The notes under the pieces: generated by a model
Told to the model about the DNA's origin: nothing
The model's database searches: none
The model's input: only the letters and a program-made list of their open reading frames with translations
Source: Escherichia phage Bp4
Length of the DNA: 64,000 bases
Reading direction: 5' to 3' (one strand)
Sequence record: NC_024142.2
In this document: one piece after another, positions 19,780 to 63,969 of the stretch
How positions within the stretch are numbered: position 1 is the stretch's first letter
How the letters are laid out: each line of letters begins with the position of its first letter
Made by a program: the position numbers and the translations under genes

Positions 19780-20916
19780 ATGGGCTTATTCAGTGGGAAG
19801 ACTAAAGTATACGTAGCATCCTCTGTCTATAACATGGCAGGGGATATACACAAACGTCCTAACTATATGAAGACTGTAGTCATCGGTAACATTGTTTCCA
19901 ATACAGGATTCACTATGGCAGACACTATCTCTGATAGTTATCTGAATGGACCTGGTATTCGTATGCGATTGTTCTCCAGCTGGAGTAAGAACCACTATGA
20001 TTCAGAAGTTGGTATGGCTGGTTCTTCGTTGGGTGTATTGGCTAAGATTGACCCTACTGTTATAGAGGGTCAAATTACACCACCTGCTGGAGAGTCTGTC
20101 TATGTTCAGGCAGCAGAAATTGGCTTTGCTGACTTTGAGCAATGGTGTGACCAATATCTTTATGAAAATGCTCCTAGTCGAATCATGGAACGATTCGACA
20201 TAGACATCAATGAAGATACTAATGAAATTACTATGACCTCCCTGGATGGTGGTTCTACTATTAAATTCACACCTACTAACTTTGAACCAGGTGCTTTGTA
20301 TCTCTATGCTGATTACTCATTCTATAAGTCCCCGTCTATCAATCCACCGGTAGAGGGACCGACTACTGTCTATGATGATGAGGATGACTTACCTTCTACT
20401 TTGTTATGGACTACTGTTTCAAGTGATACAACAGCTAATACAACTAATCTCACTAAGACTATACAGACTCATTCTGTTTATTCTGATGGTAGACCAGATG
20501 AAGACAGTACTGTCACCGAACCAAGTGTAGATAACTGGAACTCTTACATTAAGGTTTACCGTAGAGGATTCACTGAAAAACCTGATGACGTAACTGTAGT
20601 TGTATCTGACAGGGTAATGACTCATAAAAAGTTTGGTGAGATTCAATCCAGTACTTCTGTAACTACCAATGTAGTTGATATAGGTGGTGGTGTTACTCGT
20701 ACCGATACAATCACTACAACCACAGAGACACTGGTTCGTAAGTATTCCTCCCAGACTACTCGTACAGATACAGAGATGACTGCTGTTGGTACACCTAAGC
20801 TGCTTATCTATAAGCAGAACTCTGGTAACGTTGCACTAGACTCACTGTTCGATACCGAAGCTACTGATAACCGATTCTACCATTCATTCCAATCAGGAAT
20901 GATAAGCAATGGGTAG
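19780..20916 (+). CDS. virion structural protein (hypothetical)
   Basis: 378-aa Ser/Thr-rich ORF. Confidence 0.5.
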   Translation: MGLFSGKTKVYVASSVYNMAGDIHKRPNYMKTVVIGNIVSNTGFTMADTISDSYLNGPGIRMRLFSSWSKNHYDSEVGMAGSSLGVLAKIDPTVIEGQITPPAGESVYVQAAEIGFADFEQWCDQYLYENAPSRIMERFDIDINEDTNEITMTSLDGGSTIKFTPTNFEPGALYLYADYSFYKSPSINPPVEGPTTVYDDEDDLPSTLLWTTVSSDTTANTTNLTKTIQTHSVYSDGRPDEDSTVTEPSVDNWNSYIKVYRRGFTEKPDDVTVVVSDRVMTHKKFGEIQSSTSVTTNVVDIGGGVTRTDTITTTTETLVRKYSSQTTRTDTEMTAVGTPKLLIYKQNSGNVALDSLFDTEATDNRFYHSFQSGMISNG

Positions 20917-21107
20917 AGAATGACCCAATCTATCCATACTGTAAGAAAGCTCTTTATAAAGCTACCGGTGGAAAAATTGATAAGGTAGTAACAGAGCTTA
21001 AGAAGAATGATGATATAGGTGATATTCAGTACATTTATGGCACATTTGGCGTATCTCTTAATACTCCTGAAGATACTGCTAAGGAATACATCTACCGTTT
21101 CTTTCAG

Positions 21108-22433
21108 ATGGCTACTGAAGCATTCCCACCTGACCCAACCTATCCAACCTTGGAGGCAGTGATTGCAGGTTATCAGGCAGCTAATGATGCAGTTGATGCA
21201 TATGTAGAATGGTGGAATAGGACTGAAGGGCACACTATTGGAACTCCTCCACCACTGCCAGAATACCCAGTCATACCTAAGAGAGAATTTAGGGTACATA
21301 GTAATAAGCATTACAAGTATGACATGACCATTGGTTGGAATTACGTATCTGAAACTACCCACTCAGGGCAAGCATGGTCTGGTGCTAAGCAAGGACAACT
21401 TCGAGCCAGGTATGCAGGGGATATAACTCTTACTCGCAAGAACATACGAACTGCTAGTAACTCCGGTTCAGCTAAGAAGTTAGAGGTTACCACTACATTC
21501 TATTCTATGCAGGAGTATGAACTGCTTTGGCAGGATGGTAATAACACTTACCGTAAACTCAGAGTACTGGGTCTAAATCACAATAACAGGGTATATAAGA
21601 ATAAGTCAGTGCATATTGATGTTGCCGAAGCAATGGGTGATGCAGAGGAGAGTGGGTTCATTATTCCACTACATACTAACATCTATCGTTCAATGTCACT
21701 GATTCGAAGTACTCAGCTATCCACTGCCTGCTCCTACTTAGTGATGAACTCATATAAGAAGGTTAAGCAGAAGTGGTATCAAACATCTGCCTTTAAGATT
21801 GTGGTTGTTGTGGTTGCTGTCGTTGTATCCGTATTCACTATGGGTACTGGTGGTGCAGGTATACTTGGGGCATATGGAGCAGTTGGGGCGTCACTCGGTT
21901 TTGTTGGATTAGCTGCTGTAATAGTAGGTGCTGTAGCAAACGCCATTGCTGCAATGATTCTGGTATCTATTATCACTAAAGTATCCACTTCACTCTTTGG
22001 TGATAAGCTAGGTTTTATCATTGCTGCTGTTGCTTCAATGGTAGCTATGAATGTTGGTACTGCTCTATCTACTGGTTCATCCTTATCTACCTTAGCCAGT
22101 GAAATGATGAATGCTCAGAACATCATGCAGCTTACCAGTTCAGTAGGTAATGGTATTAGCCAGTATATTAATGCATCTACGGCTGCTACTATTCAGAAAG
22201 CAGAGAAAGTAATGCAGCAGTACAATACTGATATGATGGCAATCAATAAGCAGTATGAAGAGATGTTTGGTACTGCTGGGCAGGGTGTAATTGACCCTAT
22301 GCAATTTGTGTCAATGGAGTCGATGGATTCTTTCCTCTCACGTACTCTCATGACTGGTTCGGATATAGCTGACATGTCTTTAAACATGATTGGAAGCTAC
22401 TCTGATATGACTCTTAATACTGACCTTGTTTAA
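21108..22433 (+). CDS. virion protein with central multi-TM/Gly-Ala-rich region (ejection-protein candidate)
   Basis: ~100-aa hydrophobic block VVVVAVVVSVFTMGTGGAGILGAYGAVGASLGFVGLAAVIVGAV…. Confidence 0.5.
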   Translation: MATEAFPPDPTYPTLEAVIAGYQAANDAVDAYVEWWNRTEGHTIGTPPPLPEYPVIPKREFRVHSNKHYKYDMTIGWNYVSETTHSGQAWSGAKQGQLRARYAGDITLTRKNIRTASNSGSAKKLEVTTTFYSMQEYELLWQDGNNTYRKLRVLGLNHNNRVYKNKSVHIDVAEAMGDAEESGFIIPLHTNIYRSMSLIRSTQLSTACSYLVMNSYKKVKQKWYQTSAFKIVVVVVAVVVSVFTMGTGGAGILGAYGAVGASLGFVGLAAVIVGAVANAIAAMILVSIITKVSTSLFGDKLGFIIAAVASMVAMNVGTALSTGSSLSTLASEMMNAQNIMQLTSSVGNGISQYINASTAATIQKAEKVMQQYNTDMMAINKQYEEMFGTAGQGVIDPMQFVSMESMDSFLSRTLMTGSDIADMSLNMIGSYSDMTLNTDLV

Positions 22434-35675: not shown

Positions 35676-35705
35676 AGCCCCTCTAATGAGGGGCTTTTAT
35701 TTTTA
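35676..35705. terminator. bidirectional intrinsic terminator
   Basis: 8-bp stem AGCCCCTC/GAGGGGCT, loop TAAT, A-run upstream and TTTTATTTTT downstream; between convergent genes. Confidence 0.75.
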
Positions 35706-36194
35706 CTGAGCTAACACCCAATCTTCTGCTAATACATCTGATTGAGATGGAACCCATGGCATAAACTGGTTATCAACGGTTTTAATACCCAGCCAATCCC
35801 GTTTCTCACAAACGGTATTTTCATGTTTATCCATGGCCCAATTTTCACCAGATACTAAGGTGATATACATTCCTTTTCCGTTCCAACCTTTACGGGTCAT
35901 TCTAAAGCCTGATTTGAGAATCTCTACTGCATGACCAAAGGTACAACCTTTTTCTACGTCACGGTATGCAGCTTCGAATGTAGCTTTAGGTGACCAGCTA
36001 ATATAGCCACGGAATTGGGGATGGTTGGACTTAGAGTCTGGATACTCGACTAAGTAGCCTTCTTCTAGCGGGTCTTCATCTGCTGGTACATCCCAACCAC
36101 GAAGTTTGCAGTATGTTTCTTTGCTCATCGGGAAACCATTTACACACTTGGTTCCAATGTAGTTGGTGAAATGGACTTTAATTTCTTCTGACAT
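35703..36194 (-). CDS. DUF2829/Tad2-like domain protein (candidate anti-Thoeris sponge) with N-terminal extension
   Basis: C-terminal ~80 aa: AVEILKSGFRMTRKGWNGKGMYITL … PWVPSQSDVLAEDWVL matches my recollection of the DUF2829 motif; start taken at MSEEIKV with GAGG RBS. Confidence 0.45.
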   Translation of the reverse strand: MSEEIKVHFTNYIGTKCVNGFPMSKETYCKLRGWDVPADEDPLEEGYLVEYPDSKSNHPQFRGYISWSPKATFEAAYRDVEKGCTFGHAVEILKSGFRMTRKGWNGKGMYITLVSGENWAMDKHENTVCEKRDWLGIKTVDNQFMPWVPSQSDVLAEDWVLAQ

Positions 36195-36211
36195 AACTAC
36201 CTCAAATGAGA

Positions 36212-36240
36212 AAGCCCTCACTAGGAGGGCTTGTTTTGTT
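36212..36240. terminator. terminator-like hairpin between two minus-strand accessory genes
   Basis: AGCCCTC-ACTAG-GAGGGCT followed by TGTTTTGTTTT on plus and TTTCTCATTT on minus. Confidence 0.4.
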
Positions 36241-36312: not shown

Positions 36313-36693
36313 TCAAATTGTACAACCACCACCATCACAGGTATTGTTTTCTGCAAAGGAAGCCAAAGCTTTAGCAGTCTCTTCCTTCTCATGCAGTGCC
36401 TGACGTAGTAGGTAGCCCTCTAATTCCCAAATCTTATTGAATGCATTTTCATATGCATACTGGCGACCTAACTGCTCATCATAGATAGTTGGGTCTACGC
36501 AAGCAGATACACCTTCAACTTTAAAATTGTTTTCCAGAATGATAACACAATAGGTTACCAGACCCAGGTTAGCCAAATCATCTGCCGGGAGTGCAGAAGG
36601 ATCAACGAATGCAGATTTCACTGCATCAGCACCATTAAAATAGTAAACGCTCTTAATCTTAGCTTCGATTGCTTCTTTACTTACTGTTGCCAT
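36313..36693 (-). CDS. hypothetical accessory protein
   Basis: ORF with start at MATVSKEA; contains YYFNGADAV … ENAFNKIWELEGY; no confident family. Confidence 0.5.
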   Translation of the reverse strand: MATVSKEAIEAKIKSVYYFNGADAVKSAFVDPSALPADDLANLGLVTYCVIILENNFKVEGVSACVDPTIYDEQLGRQYAYENAFNKIWELEGYLLRQALHEKEETAKALASFAENNTCDGGGCTI

Positions 36694-36751
36694 TATTAGC
36701 CTCATAGAGTGGTTTGAATTTGTACTTAAGCATGATTGCGTTCATCAATAC

Positions 36752-59059: not shown

Positions 59060-59263
59060 TTACATTTGTAACCTGGTTCTGCCTTTGTTGGACAGTGACC
59101 AAATCAGTGCTACTACCCAGAATACCAGTGACCAGCCTAATACTATATTAAGCACGCCAATGCCCCACTTAGAGGCATGGCCTCGTGCAAAAGCAATGAT
59201 AGTAGGGATAAGGTATACAGCTAATATAAACAACATAACAAGGATTGCTGCTAAAGATTCCAT
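59060..59263 (-). CDS. superinfection immunity (Imm-like) small membrane protein
   Basis: YLIPTIIAFARGH … VLNIVLGWSLVFWVVALIWS matches the Imm-type two-TM motif; likely start at MESLAAIL. Confidence 0.55.
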   Translation of the reverse strand: MESLAAILVMLFILAVYLIPTIIAFARGHASKWGIGVLNIVLGWSLVFWVVALIWSLSNKGRTRLQM

Positions 59264-59336
59264 GATGGTTCCTATGTGGGGTTGAGTTAGTTTCTTCACA
59301 AATAGCCCAACAATGCTGGGCTATTTAGGCAGCTAC

Positions 59337-59555: not shown

Positions 59556-60062
59556 TTATTTACTGCTTCTTGCAGCTACTGGTTTGTTTTCCTGGTTCTG
59601 ATACTTGCCATTGTAATTAGCAGGTTCCTGAACCAGATGAAATAATACTTGAGCTATCCCAGAACCAGCCGGGATATGCAGTTTCTTACGACCGTGATAG
59701 ACAAGTTCGAGGGTAAGATACCCTTTCCATCCTGGTTCTATTACGGTATTGAACACAGATAATGCACGTCTTGCCCAGGTAGACTTATCGTGAACGATGG
59801 CTACACAGGAAGGAGACATGTTGAACTTCTCAATTGCTGAAGCCAATGTGAACTTACCGAGATGGCGTGATACTTGATTTCCATCAACGACTTTCACCAT
59901 TGGAATCAACCCAAATAAGCGATAGAAGGTAATATCTTGTTTGATACGAATATCATAACCAGCTTCACCCAATCCATAGCTTACACCATGCTCGGATACC
60001 TTACGGTCTGGGACATCCAGCAACTGAGATGAACGATAAAGAGAATTACCATTAACAACCAT
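59556..60062 (-). CDS. dcd: dCTP deaminase (Dcd/dUTPase superfamily)
   Basis: GYDIRI and STWARRALSVFNTVIEPGWKGYLTLELVYHG … AQVLF parallel E. coli Dcd motifs. Confidence 0.7.
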   Translation of the reverse strand: MVVNGNSLYRSSQLLDVPDRKVSEHGVSYGLGEAGYDIRIKQDITFYRLFGLIPMVKVVDGNQVSRHLGKFTLASAIEKFNMSPSCVAIVHDKSTWARRALSVFNTVIEPGWKGYLTLELVYHGRKKLHIPAGSGIAQVLFHLVQEPANYNGKYQNQENKPVAARSSK

Positions 60063-60580
60063 TATTTCATTCCTTTAGGGATATGAACTACCTCCCCAAA
60101 AGGTACGGTAGCATTAGGATTATTCAGAACACACCAGATGATAGGAATATCAAATGGTAATTCTTTCATTGGGCGAACATACATATCGGAGAATATGATT
60201 GCAGCGGTTGGCTTATTCTTAATAATCCAATCACGTACTGGTTCAAGGCTTGTACCACCACGACCAGTAATCTTAATCTCTTCAAAAGTATCTTCTTCAG
60301 TGATGTCTATTTCTTCCTGGATAATATCGTCGAAGGTAATTAGTGACATCTTCTTAGGATTGAACTGACTTTTAACGTAGGCGACTTCTGAGTTAAAACG
60401 CAGAGAGTCAGCACTACTAATAGAACCAGATACATCCTCAAAGTAGGCTAAGTGACGTAGACGTCCTTCATCATCTTCTAAGGAAGGTAGATAGATGTCA
60501 GTGTAACGACGGTTGGGTCTGGCCCACGTATAATGTGTGTCATCAATGTCGGTAAAAAGTTCATCAGAACTTCCTGCCAT
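60062..60580 (-). CDS. vWA-domain protein, C-terminal segment
   Basis: MIDAS-like DVSGSIS…TGRGGTS; upstream part of the gene lies in other frames. Confidence 0.55.
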   Translation of the reverse strand: MAGSSDELFTDIDDTHYTWARPNRRYTDIYLPSLEDDEGRLRHLAYFEDVSGSISSADSLRFNSEVAYVKSQFNPKKMSLITFDDIIQEEIDITEEDTFEEIKITGRGGTSLEPVRDWIIKNKPTAAIIFSDMYVRPMKELPFDIPIIWCVLNNPNATVPFGEVVHIPKGMK

Positions 60581-60675
60581 GGAACCACTGGTTTAAGGAA
60601 TTGGGTAATAACCTCTTCCATACGACCAGCACCTTTACCAGGCATCTGTCCACCAGCCATTTTCTGGCTCTGCAT
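60478..60675 (-). CDS. vWA-domain protein, middle segment (frame-shifted)
   Basis: Frame open upstream: HFGQSQGAVVNNVVRAMQSQKMAGGQMPGKGAGRMEEVITQF. Confidence 0.45.
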   Translation of the reverse strand: MQSQKMAGGQMPGKGAGRMEEVITQFLKPVVPWQEVLMNFLPTLMTHIIRGPDPTVVTLTSIYLP

Positions 60676-61234
60676 TGCACGTACTACGTTGTTGACAACA
60701 GCACCCTGGGACTGCCCGAAGTGGGGATTTCATGTCGCCAGCAAGACCTGCTCCAGCACCCCCTGACGGCTTCTGCCTTTTCTGAGGGTTCTTCATCAGG
60801 TCATCGTAGATGTCTTCTTCGACCCATCCTTTATATTGAGGGTCTTTGCAAATGCCTTCATCAATGCCAGTGAACTTGTAACCATCTTCTTCTAACTGAA
60901 GGTTAATGAAGTGGTCACAAGCCTGGTTCCAGACTTCTGGGTCACGGCTTCCACGTCGGATGTCGTGTAGATATGCCACATGCCATAATTCATGCATAAG
61001 CACTGTTTCTCTTACATCTGGACACATCCAGATAAAGAAATCTGGGTTGAAATGGAGTTCTATCCCATCAGTACATGCAGTGGGACAATCCTCACGTTTC
61101 CATGAGAATTTAAGACTACACAGTAATGAACCAAAGAAGGCTGCGCTGCGACCTAAAAAAGCCTGCGCTTGGATTCTATCGTACTCCCTCATTAGCTGCT
61201 CATCTGTGAGACTATGCGTAGGTATACTGTTCAT
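60635..61234 (-). CDS. vWA-domain protein, N-terminal metallopeptidase-like segment
   Basis: HELWHVAYLH motif; C-terminal ~30 residues Cys-rich out-of-frame; removing one C from the CCCC run (plus GGGG 60723-60726) restores the frame. Confidence 0.55.
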   Translation of the reverse strand: MNSIPTHSLTDEQLMREYDRIQAQAFLGRSAAFFGSLLCSLKFSWKREDCPTACTDGIELHFNPDFFIWMCPDVRETVLMHELWHVAYLHDIRRGSRDPEVWNQACDHFINLQLEEDGYKFTGIDEGICKDPQYKGWVEEDIYDDLMKNPQKRQKPSGGAGAGLAGDMKSPLRAVPGCCCQQRSTCNAEPENGWWTDAW

Positions 61235-61566
61235 TAGGGTGCTCCATGATTGGGGTGATAGCCATACAGTTTTTCAGCCGCTTTTCTGGCGTCTATGGCA
61301 TCTTGCTTGTCTGCAAAAGTGCCCAAACTTACCAGACGTGTTCCATCAGATATAGCTGCATACCAGATGGAATCACGCTTGTGCCAGTACACACCAGTAA
61401 CACCACTGGAATTAGTTACCCGTTTCTTTTGGTTTCTGGTGTTAGTTCTGCTGTCTACTAATCTAAAGTTACTTAGAAGGTTATTAACCCTATTGTGGTC
61501 TAGGTGATCAATCTGCATACCTTTCGGGATAGGTCCATTGTGCATTTCCCATATGACACGGTGCAC
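61234..61566 (-). CDS. HNH homing endonuclease with AP2 domain (annotated ORF is the 3' two-thirds; gene likely 61234..61713)
   Basis: IDHLDHNRVNN HNH core and SGVTGVYWHKRDSIWYAAISDG AP2-like; the N-terminus (MNWNDILVYINGELFW) lies in another frame, rejoined by adding one T to the T5 run at 61628-61632. Confidence 0.75.
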   Translation of the reverse strand: MHRVIWEMHNGPIPKGMQIDHLDHNRVNNLLSNFRLVDSRTNTRNQKKRVTNSSGVTGVYWHKRDSIWYAAISDGTRLVSLGTFADKQDAIDARKAAEKLYGYHPNHGAP

Positions 61567-61719: not shown

Positions 61720-62220
61720 TTACCCGTGAATGTAGCGAGAGATATTAGCAGCAGCCTTACGCCATTCAGGGGTAGCCTGAAGATCTGGTAATGCATTGCC
61801 TACTGTACGGAAGTACAGAATCTTATGGGTGAACGTTTTAAAGCGTTCAATATACTGAAGAACATCAGCAAAGTTTTCTTCAGTAGTTTTGTTAGCCAGA
61901 TGGTTAACGGTAGCCCAACACAGGTTGTTATCTTCTGGTAGTGCACAACCCATAGGGTCTTTGACTACTTTTTCAATCGTAATGATACGATTGTATACCT
62001 GAGTGAACTGAACAAACTCTGTAGCCTTACCAGCAGTAACGTGACCTGAATAGTAGATAGAATCTTCATCAGGAAGAGCACCTTCTGGTAAGTTCTTGAG
62101 GTCTTTATTAACAAAGTCCCAAGTACGAGGGCAACAGAACGTTTTGTTCTTATGTGCTGGGTCGAAGTCATGCAGATAACCAGGGTTAGCATGTAAGAAT
62201 GCAACCAGACGTTCATCCAT
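61720..62220 (-). CDS. MoxR-like AAA+ ATPase, C-terminal segment
   Basis: In-frame continuation of the upstream ATPase after a 1-nt frameshift near 62225-62245. Confidence 0.55.
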   Translation of the reverse strand: MDERLVAFLHANPGYLHDFDPAHKNKTFCCPRTWDFVNKDLKNLPEGALPDEDSIYYSGHVTAGKATEFVQFTQVYNRIITIEKVVKDPMGCALPEDNNLCWATVNHLANKTTEENFADVLQYIERFKTFTHKILYFRTVGNALPDLQATPEWRKAAANISRYIHG

Positions 62221-62771
62221 TGCTGAGGAATCATTACATCTTCAACAAAGATGTCGAAGTTAAGTTCCATTTCAAAGTGAACCACACGAGACTGCATTGC
62301 AGTACCCAGTGGGTTAACAATGGCACGGTCAGTAGCTTTGTTACCAGCACAGACAATCATCACATTAGGATGAAGTTTTTTCTGACCAGTCATACGGTCT
62401 AGAATCAGTTTATATGCAGCAGCTACTACTTCTTTCTTAGCTGAGTTGAACTCATCAAGGAATAAGAGCCAGCCATTATACCCTTCTGGTAATTCATCTC
62501 CCTCAATTGGGAATAAGTCAGCGAATGGAATAAACTCTGCACGGTCACCATTACGGAATGGTAAGCCAGAAAGGTCTTCCGGGGCAGAAGTTGACAGACG
62601 ATGGTCTATCAACTTCATACCAAATTCTTCTGCAATAGAACGAATGATTGCAGATTTACCCATGCCAGGTGATGAAGTCAGGAACGGTACGTTACCTGCT
62701 TTCAAAGCACGGATAATAAAGTTACGAGCTTGACGTGAATTACATACGGTCAAGGAGTCAATGCTTGCCAT
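61965..62771 (-). CDS. MoxR-like AAA+ ATPase, N-terminal segment
   Basis: Walker A SSPGMGKS, Walker B LLFLDEFNSA; last ~80 residues are out-of-frame read-through. Confidence 0.65.
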   Translation of the reverse strand: MASIDSLTVCNSRQARNFIIRALKAGNVPFLTSSPGMGKSAIIRSIAEEFGMKLIDHRLSTSAPEDLSGLPFRNGDRAEFIPFADLFPIEGDELPEGYNGWLLFLDEFNSAKKEVVAAAYKLILDRMTGQKKLHPNVMIVCAGNKATDRAIVNPLGTAMQSRVVHFEMELNFDIFVEDVMIPQQWMNVWLHSYMLTLVICMTSTQHIRTKRSVALVLGTLLIKTSRTYQKVLFLMKILSTIQVTLLLVRLQSLFSSLRYTIVSLRLKK

Positions 62772-62805: not shown

Positions 62806-63135
62806 TTAAGATTTAGTGCAGGGATAGGCCTTGTGTACTGAGTACACAACAATTTGAGATGTATTCTTCATCTTGAGGATTGCAGAGTCATAAATAACCA
62901 CTTTGGCAATCTTAGGCAGAATGACCGAATATTTAATACCTTCTGGAACACAGTTATCTGTGCTCTCGATGTAAGAGATCATACTGCCCATGAAGAAACC
63001 TTGTCCGAACGCATCACGAGTGTCATCCAGGTAAGCCTGAGCACCTTCCAGAATTGGTTCTGGTTCAATTGCTTGTGCACTTGGGGCTAAAGCTATCAGT
63101 GCAGCTACTGCAATACCTTTAAGTAAAGTTTTCAT
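62806..63135 (-). CDS. secreted/periplasmic small protein
   Basis: Sec-type signal peptide MKTLLKGIAVAALIALAPSAQA with AQA cleavage site. Confidence 0.5.
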   Translation of the reverse strand: MKTLLKGIAVAALIALAPSAQAIEPEPILEGAQAYLDDTRDAFGQGFFMGSMISYIESTDNCVPEGIKYSVILPKIAKVVIYDSAILKMKNTSQIVVYSVHKAYPCTKS

Positions 63136-63321
63136 TTAGTTACCTTTCATTTCATTGAGTTTAAGTACACCGATAGGGGTTAATGACCACCCAAGACCAG
63201 CATTGAACTGAACTAAGCCCAGCTTCTTAAGAGACTGTGCGGTTTTGTTATTACGGTTGCTGGTGGCAGAACCACCTTGAACCATACGAAGGAAGATTGC
63301 TTGGGACTGAGTTAATTTCAA
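63136..63321 (-). CDS. hypothetical small protein
   Basis: 61-aa ORF abutting neighbours. Confidence 0.35.
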   Translation of the reverse strand: MKLTQSQAIFLRMVQGGSATSNRNNKTAQSLKKLGLVQFNAGLGWSLTPIGVLKLNEMKGN

Positions 63322-63527
63322 AGGTAATATCCTTCCAGGTTTATTGGTGTTACAAATGTATTTGCTGATAGATAGAATGATTTACCAGTTTCTACAGCAA
63401 CAGCAGCAGGTTTGCCTTCAGGTAGGTGAATCTTTAAACACACTGTCTGGTTATAAATAAAACCATTAGCAGGCTCTACATCACCGAAAGTTACTTCATT
63501 GTTCTCAGAACGATTTGTTACTTTCAC
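63318..63527 (-). CDS. hypothetical small protein
   Basis: 69-aa ORF, overlapping stop/start. Confidence 0.35.
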   Translation of the reverse strand: MKVTNRSENNEVTFGDVEPANGFIYNQTVCLKIHLPEGKPAAVAVETGKSFYLSANTFVTPINLEGYYL

Positions 63528-63784
63528 TCATCTTCTCCTTCATCCGGTAGCGGTGATAAATCTACACCTAAATGCTTCAGGCGTTTCTCTAAGTCATCTA
63601 CCTTATTTTGATAAAATGACAGTAGCTCAGGTAGTATTCTTGTACGAGCTTGCGGTCCTAAATCCTTATCGTAAAAGGATACTTTCACCATATGTGGAGC
63701 TTTCTTCAAACTAGCTAATTGCTGTCGGTTGTCGTTGTATTCTTCATACAATTTCTCAACCAAATGTAGATTGTGGATATTCAT
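63524..63784 (-). CDS. hypothetical small protein
   Basis: 86-aa ORF with acidic C-terminus. Confidence 0.4.
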   Translation of the reverse strand: MNIHNLHLVEKLYEEYNDNRQQLASLKKAPHMVKVSFYDKDLGPQARTRILPELLSFYQNKVDDLEKRLKHLGVDLSPLPDEGEDE

Positions 63785-63969
63785 TTCTTCTCCGGTACGA
63801 ACTGCATTACACAGCTTTGATTACGAGGGATATTAAGTTCACATTCATGCTTGAGGGTTTGTGTTACAGAGTTTGGAGTAGAACCAAAATAGGTATTGGA
63901 GATAGCTACGAATCCTGCACCTATTAAACCACCTAGTAAGAATGAGAAGAATGCAATCTCTTTATACAT
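63781..63969 (-). CDS. small membrane protein
   Basis: Single TM segment FFSFLLGGLIGAGFVAI. Confidence 0.4.
   Translation of the reverse strand: MYKEIAFFSFLLGGLIGAGFVAISNTYFGSTPNSVTQTLKHECELNIPRNQSCVMQFVPEKK

Follow-up and report, generated by a model that had tools for sequence, protein, structure and literature searches.

Five small genes lie end to end at the right-hand edge of a 64,000-nucleotide stretch of the Escherichia phage Bp4 genome (NC_024142.2; the whole stretch is called the window below). One of them, the homologue of gp17.3 of phage G7C, encodes a protein that profile comparisons place in the Rap1a/Tai4a family (PF18602) of type VI secretion amidase-immunity proteins. The point of interest is that a lytic phage carries an orphan Rap1a/Tai4a homologue in the form of a sharply bounded, multi-allelic cassette. 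In bacteria, Rap1a proteins block cell-wall-cutting toxins that rivals inject. By analogy, gp17.3 would most likely act in the periplasm, where it would inhibit incoming Tae4-type peptidoglycan endopeptidases and so shield the infected cell, a proposal to which we give an even chance. A preliminary description of the five open reading frames (ORFs) had presented them as an early cluster of small secreted and membrane proteins at the upstream end of a minus-strand operon, with a likely role in host takeover or exclusion. It is partly supported: most of what it observed is correct, and its interpretation holds in general outline but fails on the specifics.

Family membership of gp17.3

Rap1a is the sole Pfam match of the window protein and the best Pfam match of every gp17.3 allele class, of which the Moonfish-type allele (46% identical to the window protein, 29.6 bits) is the only one to pass the PF18602 cut-off alone. 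Alignment-based searches reach further. When the window protein was aligned with 20 relatives, 18 of the 21 sequences matched PF18602, with a best E-value of 8.7e-21, and hhalign joined the phage profile to a profile of 20 bacterial proteins, 17 of them individually matched to PF18602, with a probability of 99.4% and an E-value of 9.5e-22 (99.0% and 4.8e-18 over 83 columns once the signal peptides were removed). Searched against the Protein Data Bank (PDB), a mixed phage and bacterial profile found Tai4 (6ijf/6ije, E-value 6.5e-4) and Rap1a (4bi8/3zfi, E-value 1.1e-3) as its only matches at about 1e-3 or better, and the single gp17.3 sequence or the phage-only profile found no match among PDB sequences. 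In the reverse direction, an Enterobacter Rap1a protein searched against 50,697 phage records retrieved mainly gp17.3. An exhaustive search of 1.84 billion proteins with a hidden Markov model, the source of the 20 relatives aligned above, returned only 25 cluster representatives.

The arrangement of cysteines and helices agrees with this placement. Rap1a consists of five helices, and a disulfide between C78 and C122 links the helix 2-3 loop to the C-terminus (PMC3852654). In gp17.3 the counterparts are C62, in the loop formed by residues 59-68, and C106, which follows helix 5. Every phage and bacterial relative keeps both cysteines; their spacing of 44 residues is that of the Rap1a pair, and cysteine positions and helix order correspond. 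A C62-C106 disulfide would be expected from this conservation. The predicted fold is a compact five-alpha-helix bundle. It does not match the helical fold with a protruding inhibitory loop that defines canonical Tai4 (Rap2a and the E. cloacae and Salmonella Tai4 proteins), and that assignment was rejected.

In public records the domain label is already known, and gp17.3 adds a member to an existing family. In UniProt the identical Bp4 protein bears the automatic name 'Rap1a immunity protein domain-containing protein', and 'Tai4' or 'Rap1a' stands in a few GenBank records.

Signal peptides and transmembrane (TM) segments of the five ORFs were assigned with hydropathy and conservation heuristics. 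By these, a signal-peptide-like N-terminus is found only in the 109-aa gp17.3, as the preliminary description had it. The N-terminus is lysine-rich (K2, K6), with a hydrophobic core at residues 8-16 (KD9 = 3.1) followed by AQA at residues 20-22, and among 31 diverse alleles M1-L4 and A22 never change, A20 hardly ever. The protein is probably exported by Sec and cut by signal peptidase I after A22, which would give it the cleavable signal peptide and periplasmic location that are typical of the Rap1a/Tai4a family; the cleaved signal peptide of Rap1a has 26 residues (PMC3852654). A lipoprotein was ruled out, as the lipobox is absent.

The hypervariable cassette

The window was compared with G7C, PGN829.1, UE-S5b, Moonfish and phi G17, and nucleotide identity falls from 87-100% to 30-65% only between positions ~63120 and ~62820, returning to 87-100% on both sides. 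The cassette holds both cysteine codons (C62 at 62950-62952 and C106 at 62818-62820) and contrasts with its neighbours in amino acid identity and in synonymous divergence (dS; Table 1). Across 121 representatives at 90% identity, gp17.3 falls into at least seven allele classes that are less than 70% identical.

Table 1. Positions in the window and comparative data for gp17.3 and adjacent features. Identity and dS come from the allele comparisons named in the text; the records are phage records with a homologue.
Feature	Position	Strand	Amino acid identity	dS	Phage records	Remarks
gp17.3 homologue, 109 aa	62806..63135	-	37-46%	> 1.1 or saturated	55	Precursor of a putative periplasmic Rap1a/Tai4a-family (PF18602) immunity-like protein
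Predicted Sec signal peptide of gp17.3, residues 1-22	63070..63135	-				MKTLLKGIAVAALIALAPSAQA; predicted cleavage after AQA
Hypervariable allelic cassette, body of the gp17.3 coding sequence	62820..63120	-				Delimited by sliding nucleotide identity
gp17.2 homologue, 61 aa	63136..63321	-	92-95%	0.17-0.52 (joint range with gp24)	80	TTG start; basic, net charge +7; core gene of the locus
Accessory ORF, 69 aa	63318..63527	-				GTG start overlapping previous stop; no hydrophobic segment
Accessory ORF, 86 aa	63524..63784	-				Acidic, net charge -4; no hydrophobic segment
gp17.1 homologue, 62 aa	63781..63969	-			99	Single predicted N-terminal TM helix; core gene of the locus
gp24 AAA-type ATPase gene	61720..62771	-	95-97%	0.17-0.52 (joint range with gp17.2)		Directly downstream, same strand; appears split in the window

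Within the protein, variation is unevenly spread. Rap1a touches its effector Ssp1 through S81-T87, E90 and E94, just after C78, and through the helix 4-5 loop. The equivalent phage positions (65-71, 74 and 78), mapped through a low-identity alignment, have a mean entropy of 1.44, versus 0.81 elsewhere (one-sided Mann-Whitney p = 0.013), and the most variable sites are V71, N91 (in the helix 4-5 loop) and R40. Conservation is highest in helix 2, through which Rap1a dimerizes. The pattern suggests a conserved scaffold that tracks variable binding partners.

Such deep allele variation at the putative contacts speaks against a target that is a conserved host enzyme. The alternative that it touches is that gp17.3 inhibits a host NlpC/P60 endopeptidase of the MepS/MepH type, or modulates the phage lysis pathway, so that the sacculus is stabilized and lysis delayed as in N4-type lysis inhibition. 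Tae4/Ssp1 enzymes and host NlpC/P60 endopeptidases share a papain-like fold, lysis inhibition in N4-like phages is unexplained, and gp17.3 belongs to the replication-phase gene block rather than to the lysis cassette, all of which would suit a role in wall or lysis control. We nevertheless hold this role to be very improbable, given that the endopeptidases of E. coli are highly conserved whereas gp17.3 has its many deeply diverged allele classes, that the phage endolysin offers no Rap1a-type target, and that many N4-like phages keep gp17.1 and gp17.2 without gp17.3 (see the record counts in Table 1).

Orphan status and relatives elsewhere

No cognate Tae4/Ssp1 effector gene adjoins gp17.3 in a type VI secretion system (T6SS) context; its neighbours are gp17.2 and gp24. 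As its endolysin the phage has a GH108 muramidase that also carries a PG_binding_3 domain, and a Pfam scan found no Tae4, NlpC/P60 or CHAP domain in 51 other ORFs of the window, a scan that left out the virion RNA polymerase (vRNAP), several replication genes and ~8 kb of genome beyond the window. Because no Tae4-like enzyme was found in the scanned ORFs, gp17.3 is treated as an orphan. Self-immunity against a phage-encoded Tae4-like lysin was rejected on the same grounds, the endolysin being of GH108 type and no papain-like hydrolase domain having been found.

The closest bacterial relatives, in Enterobacter, Citrobacter and others, are also orphans, located beside integrase, resolvase or P4-type primase genes. 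Those of Enterobacter, Citrobacter and metagenomic origin sit on islands with integrase, resolvase, HTH_17 or DUF5906 (P4-like) genes (loci L008, L009 and L010, 5001-5769; L020, 4001-4767; L024, 4001-5195). Most of them are followed by an unannotated ORF of 121-136 aa in Enterobacter and Citrobacter, or of 277 aa in L024, which has no strong Pfam or PADLOC match; the two genes could form one unit. Neither NCBIfam nor PADLOC gave a meaningful match for these bacterial orphan genes or for any of the five phage ORFs, and a blastn search of complete E. coli genomes with the Enterobacter gene, made at the DNA level only, gave none either.

Family members are also found in phage DSL-LC04, Cronobacter phage ENT47670 and uncultured phages. 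In DSL-LC04 the GenBank name 'type VI amidase' sits on a Rap1a/Tai4a-like immunity homologue (L012, 4001-4327), which looks like a mis-annotation of an inhibitor as an enzyme. A second, unrelated N4-like contig (Logan SRR32475513, 68 kb) encodes a PF18602 protein of 116 aa in a gene that has another position, abutting the vRNAP gene (L011, 5582-6351), and is preceded by an ORF of 110-125 aa with a C-terminal TM segment. This contig points to more than one independent acquisition of Rap1a-family genes among Schitoviridae. Searches of IMG/VR for relatives of the proteins P0123 or P0125, and of 185,579 species-representative genomes for a relative of the phage-type clade, found none; both were pattern-limited, and these absences are only suggestive.

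A proposed function for gp17.3

If gp17.3 acts as a shield, the following course of events can be envisaged. The precursor would be exported by Sec and cleaved after AQA22. In the periplasm the C62-C106 disulfide would lock the five-helix bundle, and the protein would dimerize, probably through the conserved helix 2, as the model and the Rap1a precedent imply. The resulting homodimer may then sterically block the active site of a Tae4/Ssp1-type papain-like DL-endopeptidase, one that cleaves the gamma-D-glutamyl-meso-diaminopimelic acid (gamma-D-Glu-mDAP) bond, with a surface formed by two loops, helix 2-helix 3 and helix 4-helix 5, and by the first part of helix 3, the regions with the most allele-variable positions; retention of helix 2 and hypervariability of the contact equivalents support this mode of action indirectly. 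Cell-wall toxins of neighbouring bacteria would in this way be kept from bursting the infected cell ahead of the lysis that the phage itself programmes. Their likeliest source would be type VI secretion in gut or sewage communities, by Serratia, Enterobacter, Citrobacter and bacteria like them, with the many allele classes matching different effector variants.

Several points weigh against this proposal. The window protein itself scores only 14.6 bits against PF18602 (E-value 0.049), under the 27.7-bit cut-off. The Rap1a interface was mapped onto gp17.3 across low identity and covers only 8 positions, the binding and protective role is assigned by analogy with a cognate effector that is postulated, and the value to a virulent phage of a short spell of T6SS protection is an assumption. 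A literature search, limited to one library, found no paper that links Tai4 or Rap1a with N4-like phages or discusses gp17.3. Lastly, the hypervariability fits phage-phage conflict equally well. The same literature search found no description of T6SS immunity encoded by a lytic phage.

Phage-phage conflict leads to an explanation modelled on T4 Spackle, which we consider unlikely. Periplasmic gp17.3 would neutralize the papain-like (NlpC/P60, CHAP) endopeptidase of rival virions, or a peptidoglycan-degrading bacteriocin, and so stop secondary infection or lysis from without, with gp17.1 as a possible membrane partner by analogy with T4 Imm and Sp. Superinfection exclusion of this kind would use the same periplasmic-inhibitor architecture and the same hypervariable cassette, and its setting would be apt: the locus is a hotspot of inter-phage conflict in which PGN829.1 carries a superinfection-exclusion ORF (PF17420), the window encodes a T4 Imm-family protein elsewhere, and at least two lineages of Schitoviridae have Rap1a-family genes. 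No N4 superinfection exclusion system has been characterized so far (PMC12642591). However, all characterized Rap1a/Tai4a members neutralize T6SS effectors, and a peptidoglycan hydrolase was neither found among the virion proteins of the window nor is recognizable among the N4 ejection proteins (PMC13434306), which would leave exclusion of the phage's own kind without a target.

A wider reading takes in both kinds of attacker. Virulent N4-like phages may, on repeated occasions, have taken up Rap1a-fold proteins as an exchangeable conflict cassette that arms the periplasm of the infected cell, for the minutes or hours that infection lasts, against incoming endopeptidases, whether T6SS-borne or of NlpC/P60 or CHAP type and borne by the virions of competing phages; we regard this as conceivable but doubtful. 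If so, lytic phages would take a direct part in interbacterial or inter-phage cell-wall warfare, the allele class would set which attackers can be survived, and a Spackle-like exclusion would have been built on an unrelated fold. If gp17.3 neutralizes Tae4/Ssp1 enzymes in particular, immunity to a contact-dependent bacterial weapon would be borne by a strictly lytic phage purely for the benefit of its own replication factory, type VI warfare among gut and sewage bacteria would bear on phage fitness, and the performance of G7C-like therapeutic phages in mixed communities could be affected. Even without that function, the database labels 'Tai4' and 'type VI amidase' are corrected to Rap1a/Tai4a, and the apparent cluster emerges as a mosaic of independent small genes.

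The five genes and their locus

The phage belongs to Gamaleyavirus and is an N4/G7C-like coliphage. Over the 2 kb around the five ORFs the window shares 99.8% identity with Escherichia phage PD38 (Gamaleyavirus Bp4) and 91-98% with other G7C-like, N4-related podophages (Schitoviridae). In annotated relatives the interval of five ORFs is bounded by the capsid-decoration gene gp17 and the ATPase gene gp24, and in G7C it is filled by gp17.1, gp17.2 and gp17.3.

All five ORFs are present on the minus strand within 62806-63969, where the preliminary description had placed them. Neighbouring genes overlap or abut at their start and stop codons (ATGA, GTGA, TTGA, TAA-ATG), and a GGAG/AAGG-type ribosome-binding site precedes each start; going by this arrangement, the five are translationally coupled. 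Each belongs to a separate PHROG family, with E-values of 1e-33 to 1e-61, and in pairwise comparisons with 11 related phages the ratio of nonsynonymous to synonymous substitution (dN/dS) is ~0.04-0.3 for all of them. On account of these families and low ratios the ORFs are considered real, constrained genes; the preliminary description, which had listed exactly these five and had allowed that they might prove non-conserved, is in this respect confirmed by the comparative genomics, with purifying selection acting on conserved families. Its one TM helix was likewise found again, in the 62-aa gp17.1. The 86-, 69- and 61-aa products have neither a signal peptide nor a TM segment (KD19 <= 1.06), and 'cluster of secreted and membrane proteins' does not describe them.

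The helix of gp17.1 spans residues 5-23 (KD19 = 2.28) and is followed by a C-terminal tail of ~35 aa with the motif ECELNIPRNxSCVMQFVPEKK and two conserved cysteines, C43 and C53; a topology with the C-terminus outside may be read from the cysteine pair. The gene (phrog_7508, E-value 4.5e-33; dN/dS ~0.04-0.17) has no Pfam or PADLOC match, and the absence of a match to Imm_superinfect (PF14373) ruled it out as a homologue of T4 Imm. A member of that family is encoded by another ORF of the window, at 59060-59299 on the minus strand (79 aa, two TM segments, E-value 8.5e-15), a candidate superinfection-immunity membrane protein separate from the five ORFs.

The gp17.2 protein (phrog_7665, E-value 1.4e-35) is 92-98% identical across Gamaleyaviruses, with dN/dS of ~0.1-0.3, and its homologue in Moo19 adjoins that of gp17.1. 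A single-sequence AlphaFold2 model has three helices at an unreliable pLDDT of 65.7, and the protein is probably a small cytoplasmic helical one. The 86-aa ORF (phrog_19185, E-value 1.2e-56; dN/dS ~0.06-0.19), whose only Pfam hits are sub-threshold coiled-coil-type noise, probably also encodes a cytoplasmic product. It is present in PD38, PE007, ECBP1, EC1-UPM, St11Ph5, UE-S5b and PGN829.1 and absent from G7C, phi G17, Moonfish, Jgk1 and IME11. Among the phages compared, the 69-aa ORF (phrog_18793, E-value 1.3e-51; dN/dS ~0.04-0.17) is present only in PD38, PE007, ECBP1, EC1-UPM, IME11 and PGN829.1.

The 86-aa and 69-aa ORFs are therefore seen to be gained and lost independently of each other among Gamaleyaviruses, and gp17.1, gp17.2 and gp17.3 occur as a syntenic trio in every Gamaleyavirus-like phage examined. 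Records of gp17.1 and gp17.2 include N4-like phages of Klebsiella, Shigella and Erwinia. From their distribution, gp17.1 and gp17.2 appear as a widely conserved pair, and the 86-aa and 69-aa ORFs as accessory insertions. Further variable small ORFs lie between gp17 and gp17.1: in PGN829.1 a 92-aa ORF (L019, 3573-3851) matches PF17420, 'Superinfection exclusion gene product 17', with an E-value of 2.9e-37, and in PD38 an 86-aa ORF without a Pfam match (L002, 6033-6293) lies just past the point where the window ends. Because ORFs come and go between phages and PGN829.1 has its superinfection-exclusion gene there, the gp17-gp24 interval reads as an accessory-gene hotspot and not as a single module.

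That the five ORFs would instead form one early module, acting jointly as secreted and membrane host-takeover or exclusion factors, can appeal to their tight packing and translational coupling, to the two products of the five that target the envelope, and to the synteny of gp17.1-gp17.2-gp17.3 across Gamaleyaviruses. We judge it very unlikely all the same. Three of the five products are soluble, gp17.1 and gp17.2 are widespread without gp17.3, the genes probably sit in the middle-gene block rather than the early one, and the independent gain and loss of two ORFs, together with hypervariability confined to gp17.3 among neighbours that are 92-98% identical, implies that the genes evolve as separate units. 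What stands of the takeover or exclusion role put forward in the preliminary description is the notion of accessory envelope or competition functions, which fits two of the five ORFs and the hotspot locus; as a description of the whole set it does not hold, with a Rap1a/Tai4a homologue as the secreted protein, three soluble products and probably middle expression.

Transcription and the rest of the window

The same-strand array runs on upstream in PD38, G7C and UE-S5b, through one more small ORF and gp17 to the RNAP2/RNAP1 genes, and the 'upstream end of the operon' is mostly an effect of the window's edge. In PD38 a strong terminator-like hairpin follows gp17 (L002, 6382-6360), ~400 bp past the window end, and a scan found no terminator-like site between the small genes and gp24. 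Matches to sigma-70-like promoters were not enriched relative to shuffled sequences, as expected because the phage uses its own RNA polymerases. The designation of the genes as early is doubtful because they lie downstream of the genes for the phage RNA polymerase II (RNAPII), in what we take to be the middle-gene block of N4; the five are probably of the middle class.

Directly downstream, gp24 is represented in the window by two ORFs (61965-62771 and 61720-62220), split by a 1-base deletion in a C run at 62216; its homologues in PD38, G7C and others are intact coding sequences of 1053 nt. Between 58000 and 64000 the window differs from PD38 by six single-base deletions, all in homopolymer runs (window positions 59081, 60553, 60714, 60722, 61627 and 62216), and one mismatch. 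Most probably sequencing errors rather than biology, the deletions break up gp24 and gp25 (60062-61234), touch the HNH region and leave the Imm-like ORF with a shortened or changed end. Splits resembling those in gp24 and gp25 occur in a virion protein gene at 19780-22433. The HNH region is an HNH/AP2-type homing endonuclease ORF (61234-61566, minus strand) inserted between gp24 and gp25, which varies among relatives, being absent from phi G17, EC1-UPM, St11Ph5 and IME11 and 477 nt long in G7C and UE-S5b. Elsewhere in the window, just after the vRNAP gene, a 172-aa ORF contains a Tad2-like (Thoeris anti-defence 2) domain (PF11195, E-value 1.6e-21) and adjoins an ORF of the N4 gp49 family (PF13876); the pair occupies 35703-36221 and 36313-36705 on the minus strand.

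Comparison with known systems

The nearest characterized counterpart is Rap1a of Serratia marcescens (PDB 3ZFI; complex 4BI8), which shares with gp17.3 a Sec signal peptide, a mature length of ~85-95 aa, a conserved helix 2 and cysteines 44 residues apart in the helix 2-3 loop and at the C-terminus, at an identity of ~6-10% in structural alignment. Unlike Rap1a, gp17.3 comes from a virulent phage that has no T6SS, lacks an Ssp1/Tae4 gene beside it and occupies a single locus with many alleles that have diverged deeply; its dimerization and effector binding are predicted only. Tai4 of Agrobacterium tumefaciens (PDB 6IJE; Tae4-Tai4 complex 6IJF), at ~10% identity, is chromosomal and paired with Tae4 in a T6SS cluster.

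The likeness to T4 Spackle (Sp, gp61.3), which inhibits the gp5 tail lysozyme, is an analogy of function and nothing more. Each is a small, helical phage protein that has a signal peptide and, in this analogy, acts as a periplasmic inhibitor of a peptidoglycan hydrolase that arrives from outside; homology was rejected, as gp17.3 has no sequence or fold similarity to PDB 6X6O.

The closest parallel in circumstance is offered by orphan T6SS immunity genes on mobile elements, such as the Enterobacter and Citrobacter Rap1a genes described here and the acquired interbacterial defence clusters of Bacteroidales in the literature. Like gp17.3 they stand without a cognate effector and are presumed to protect against non-self effectors. 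The difference is in the carrier, which for gp17.3 is strictly lytic, so that any protection would last for one infection cycle and serve the phage rather than a bacterial lineage.

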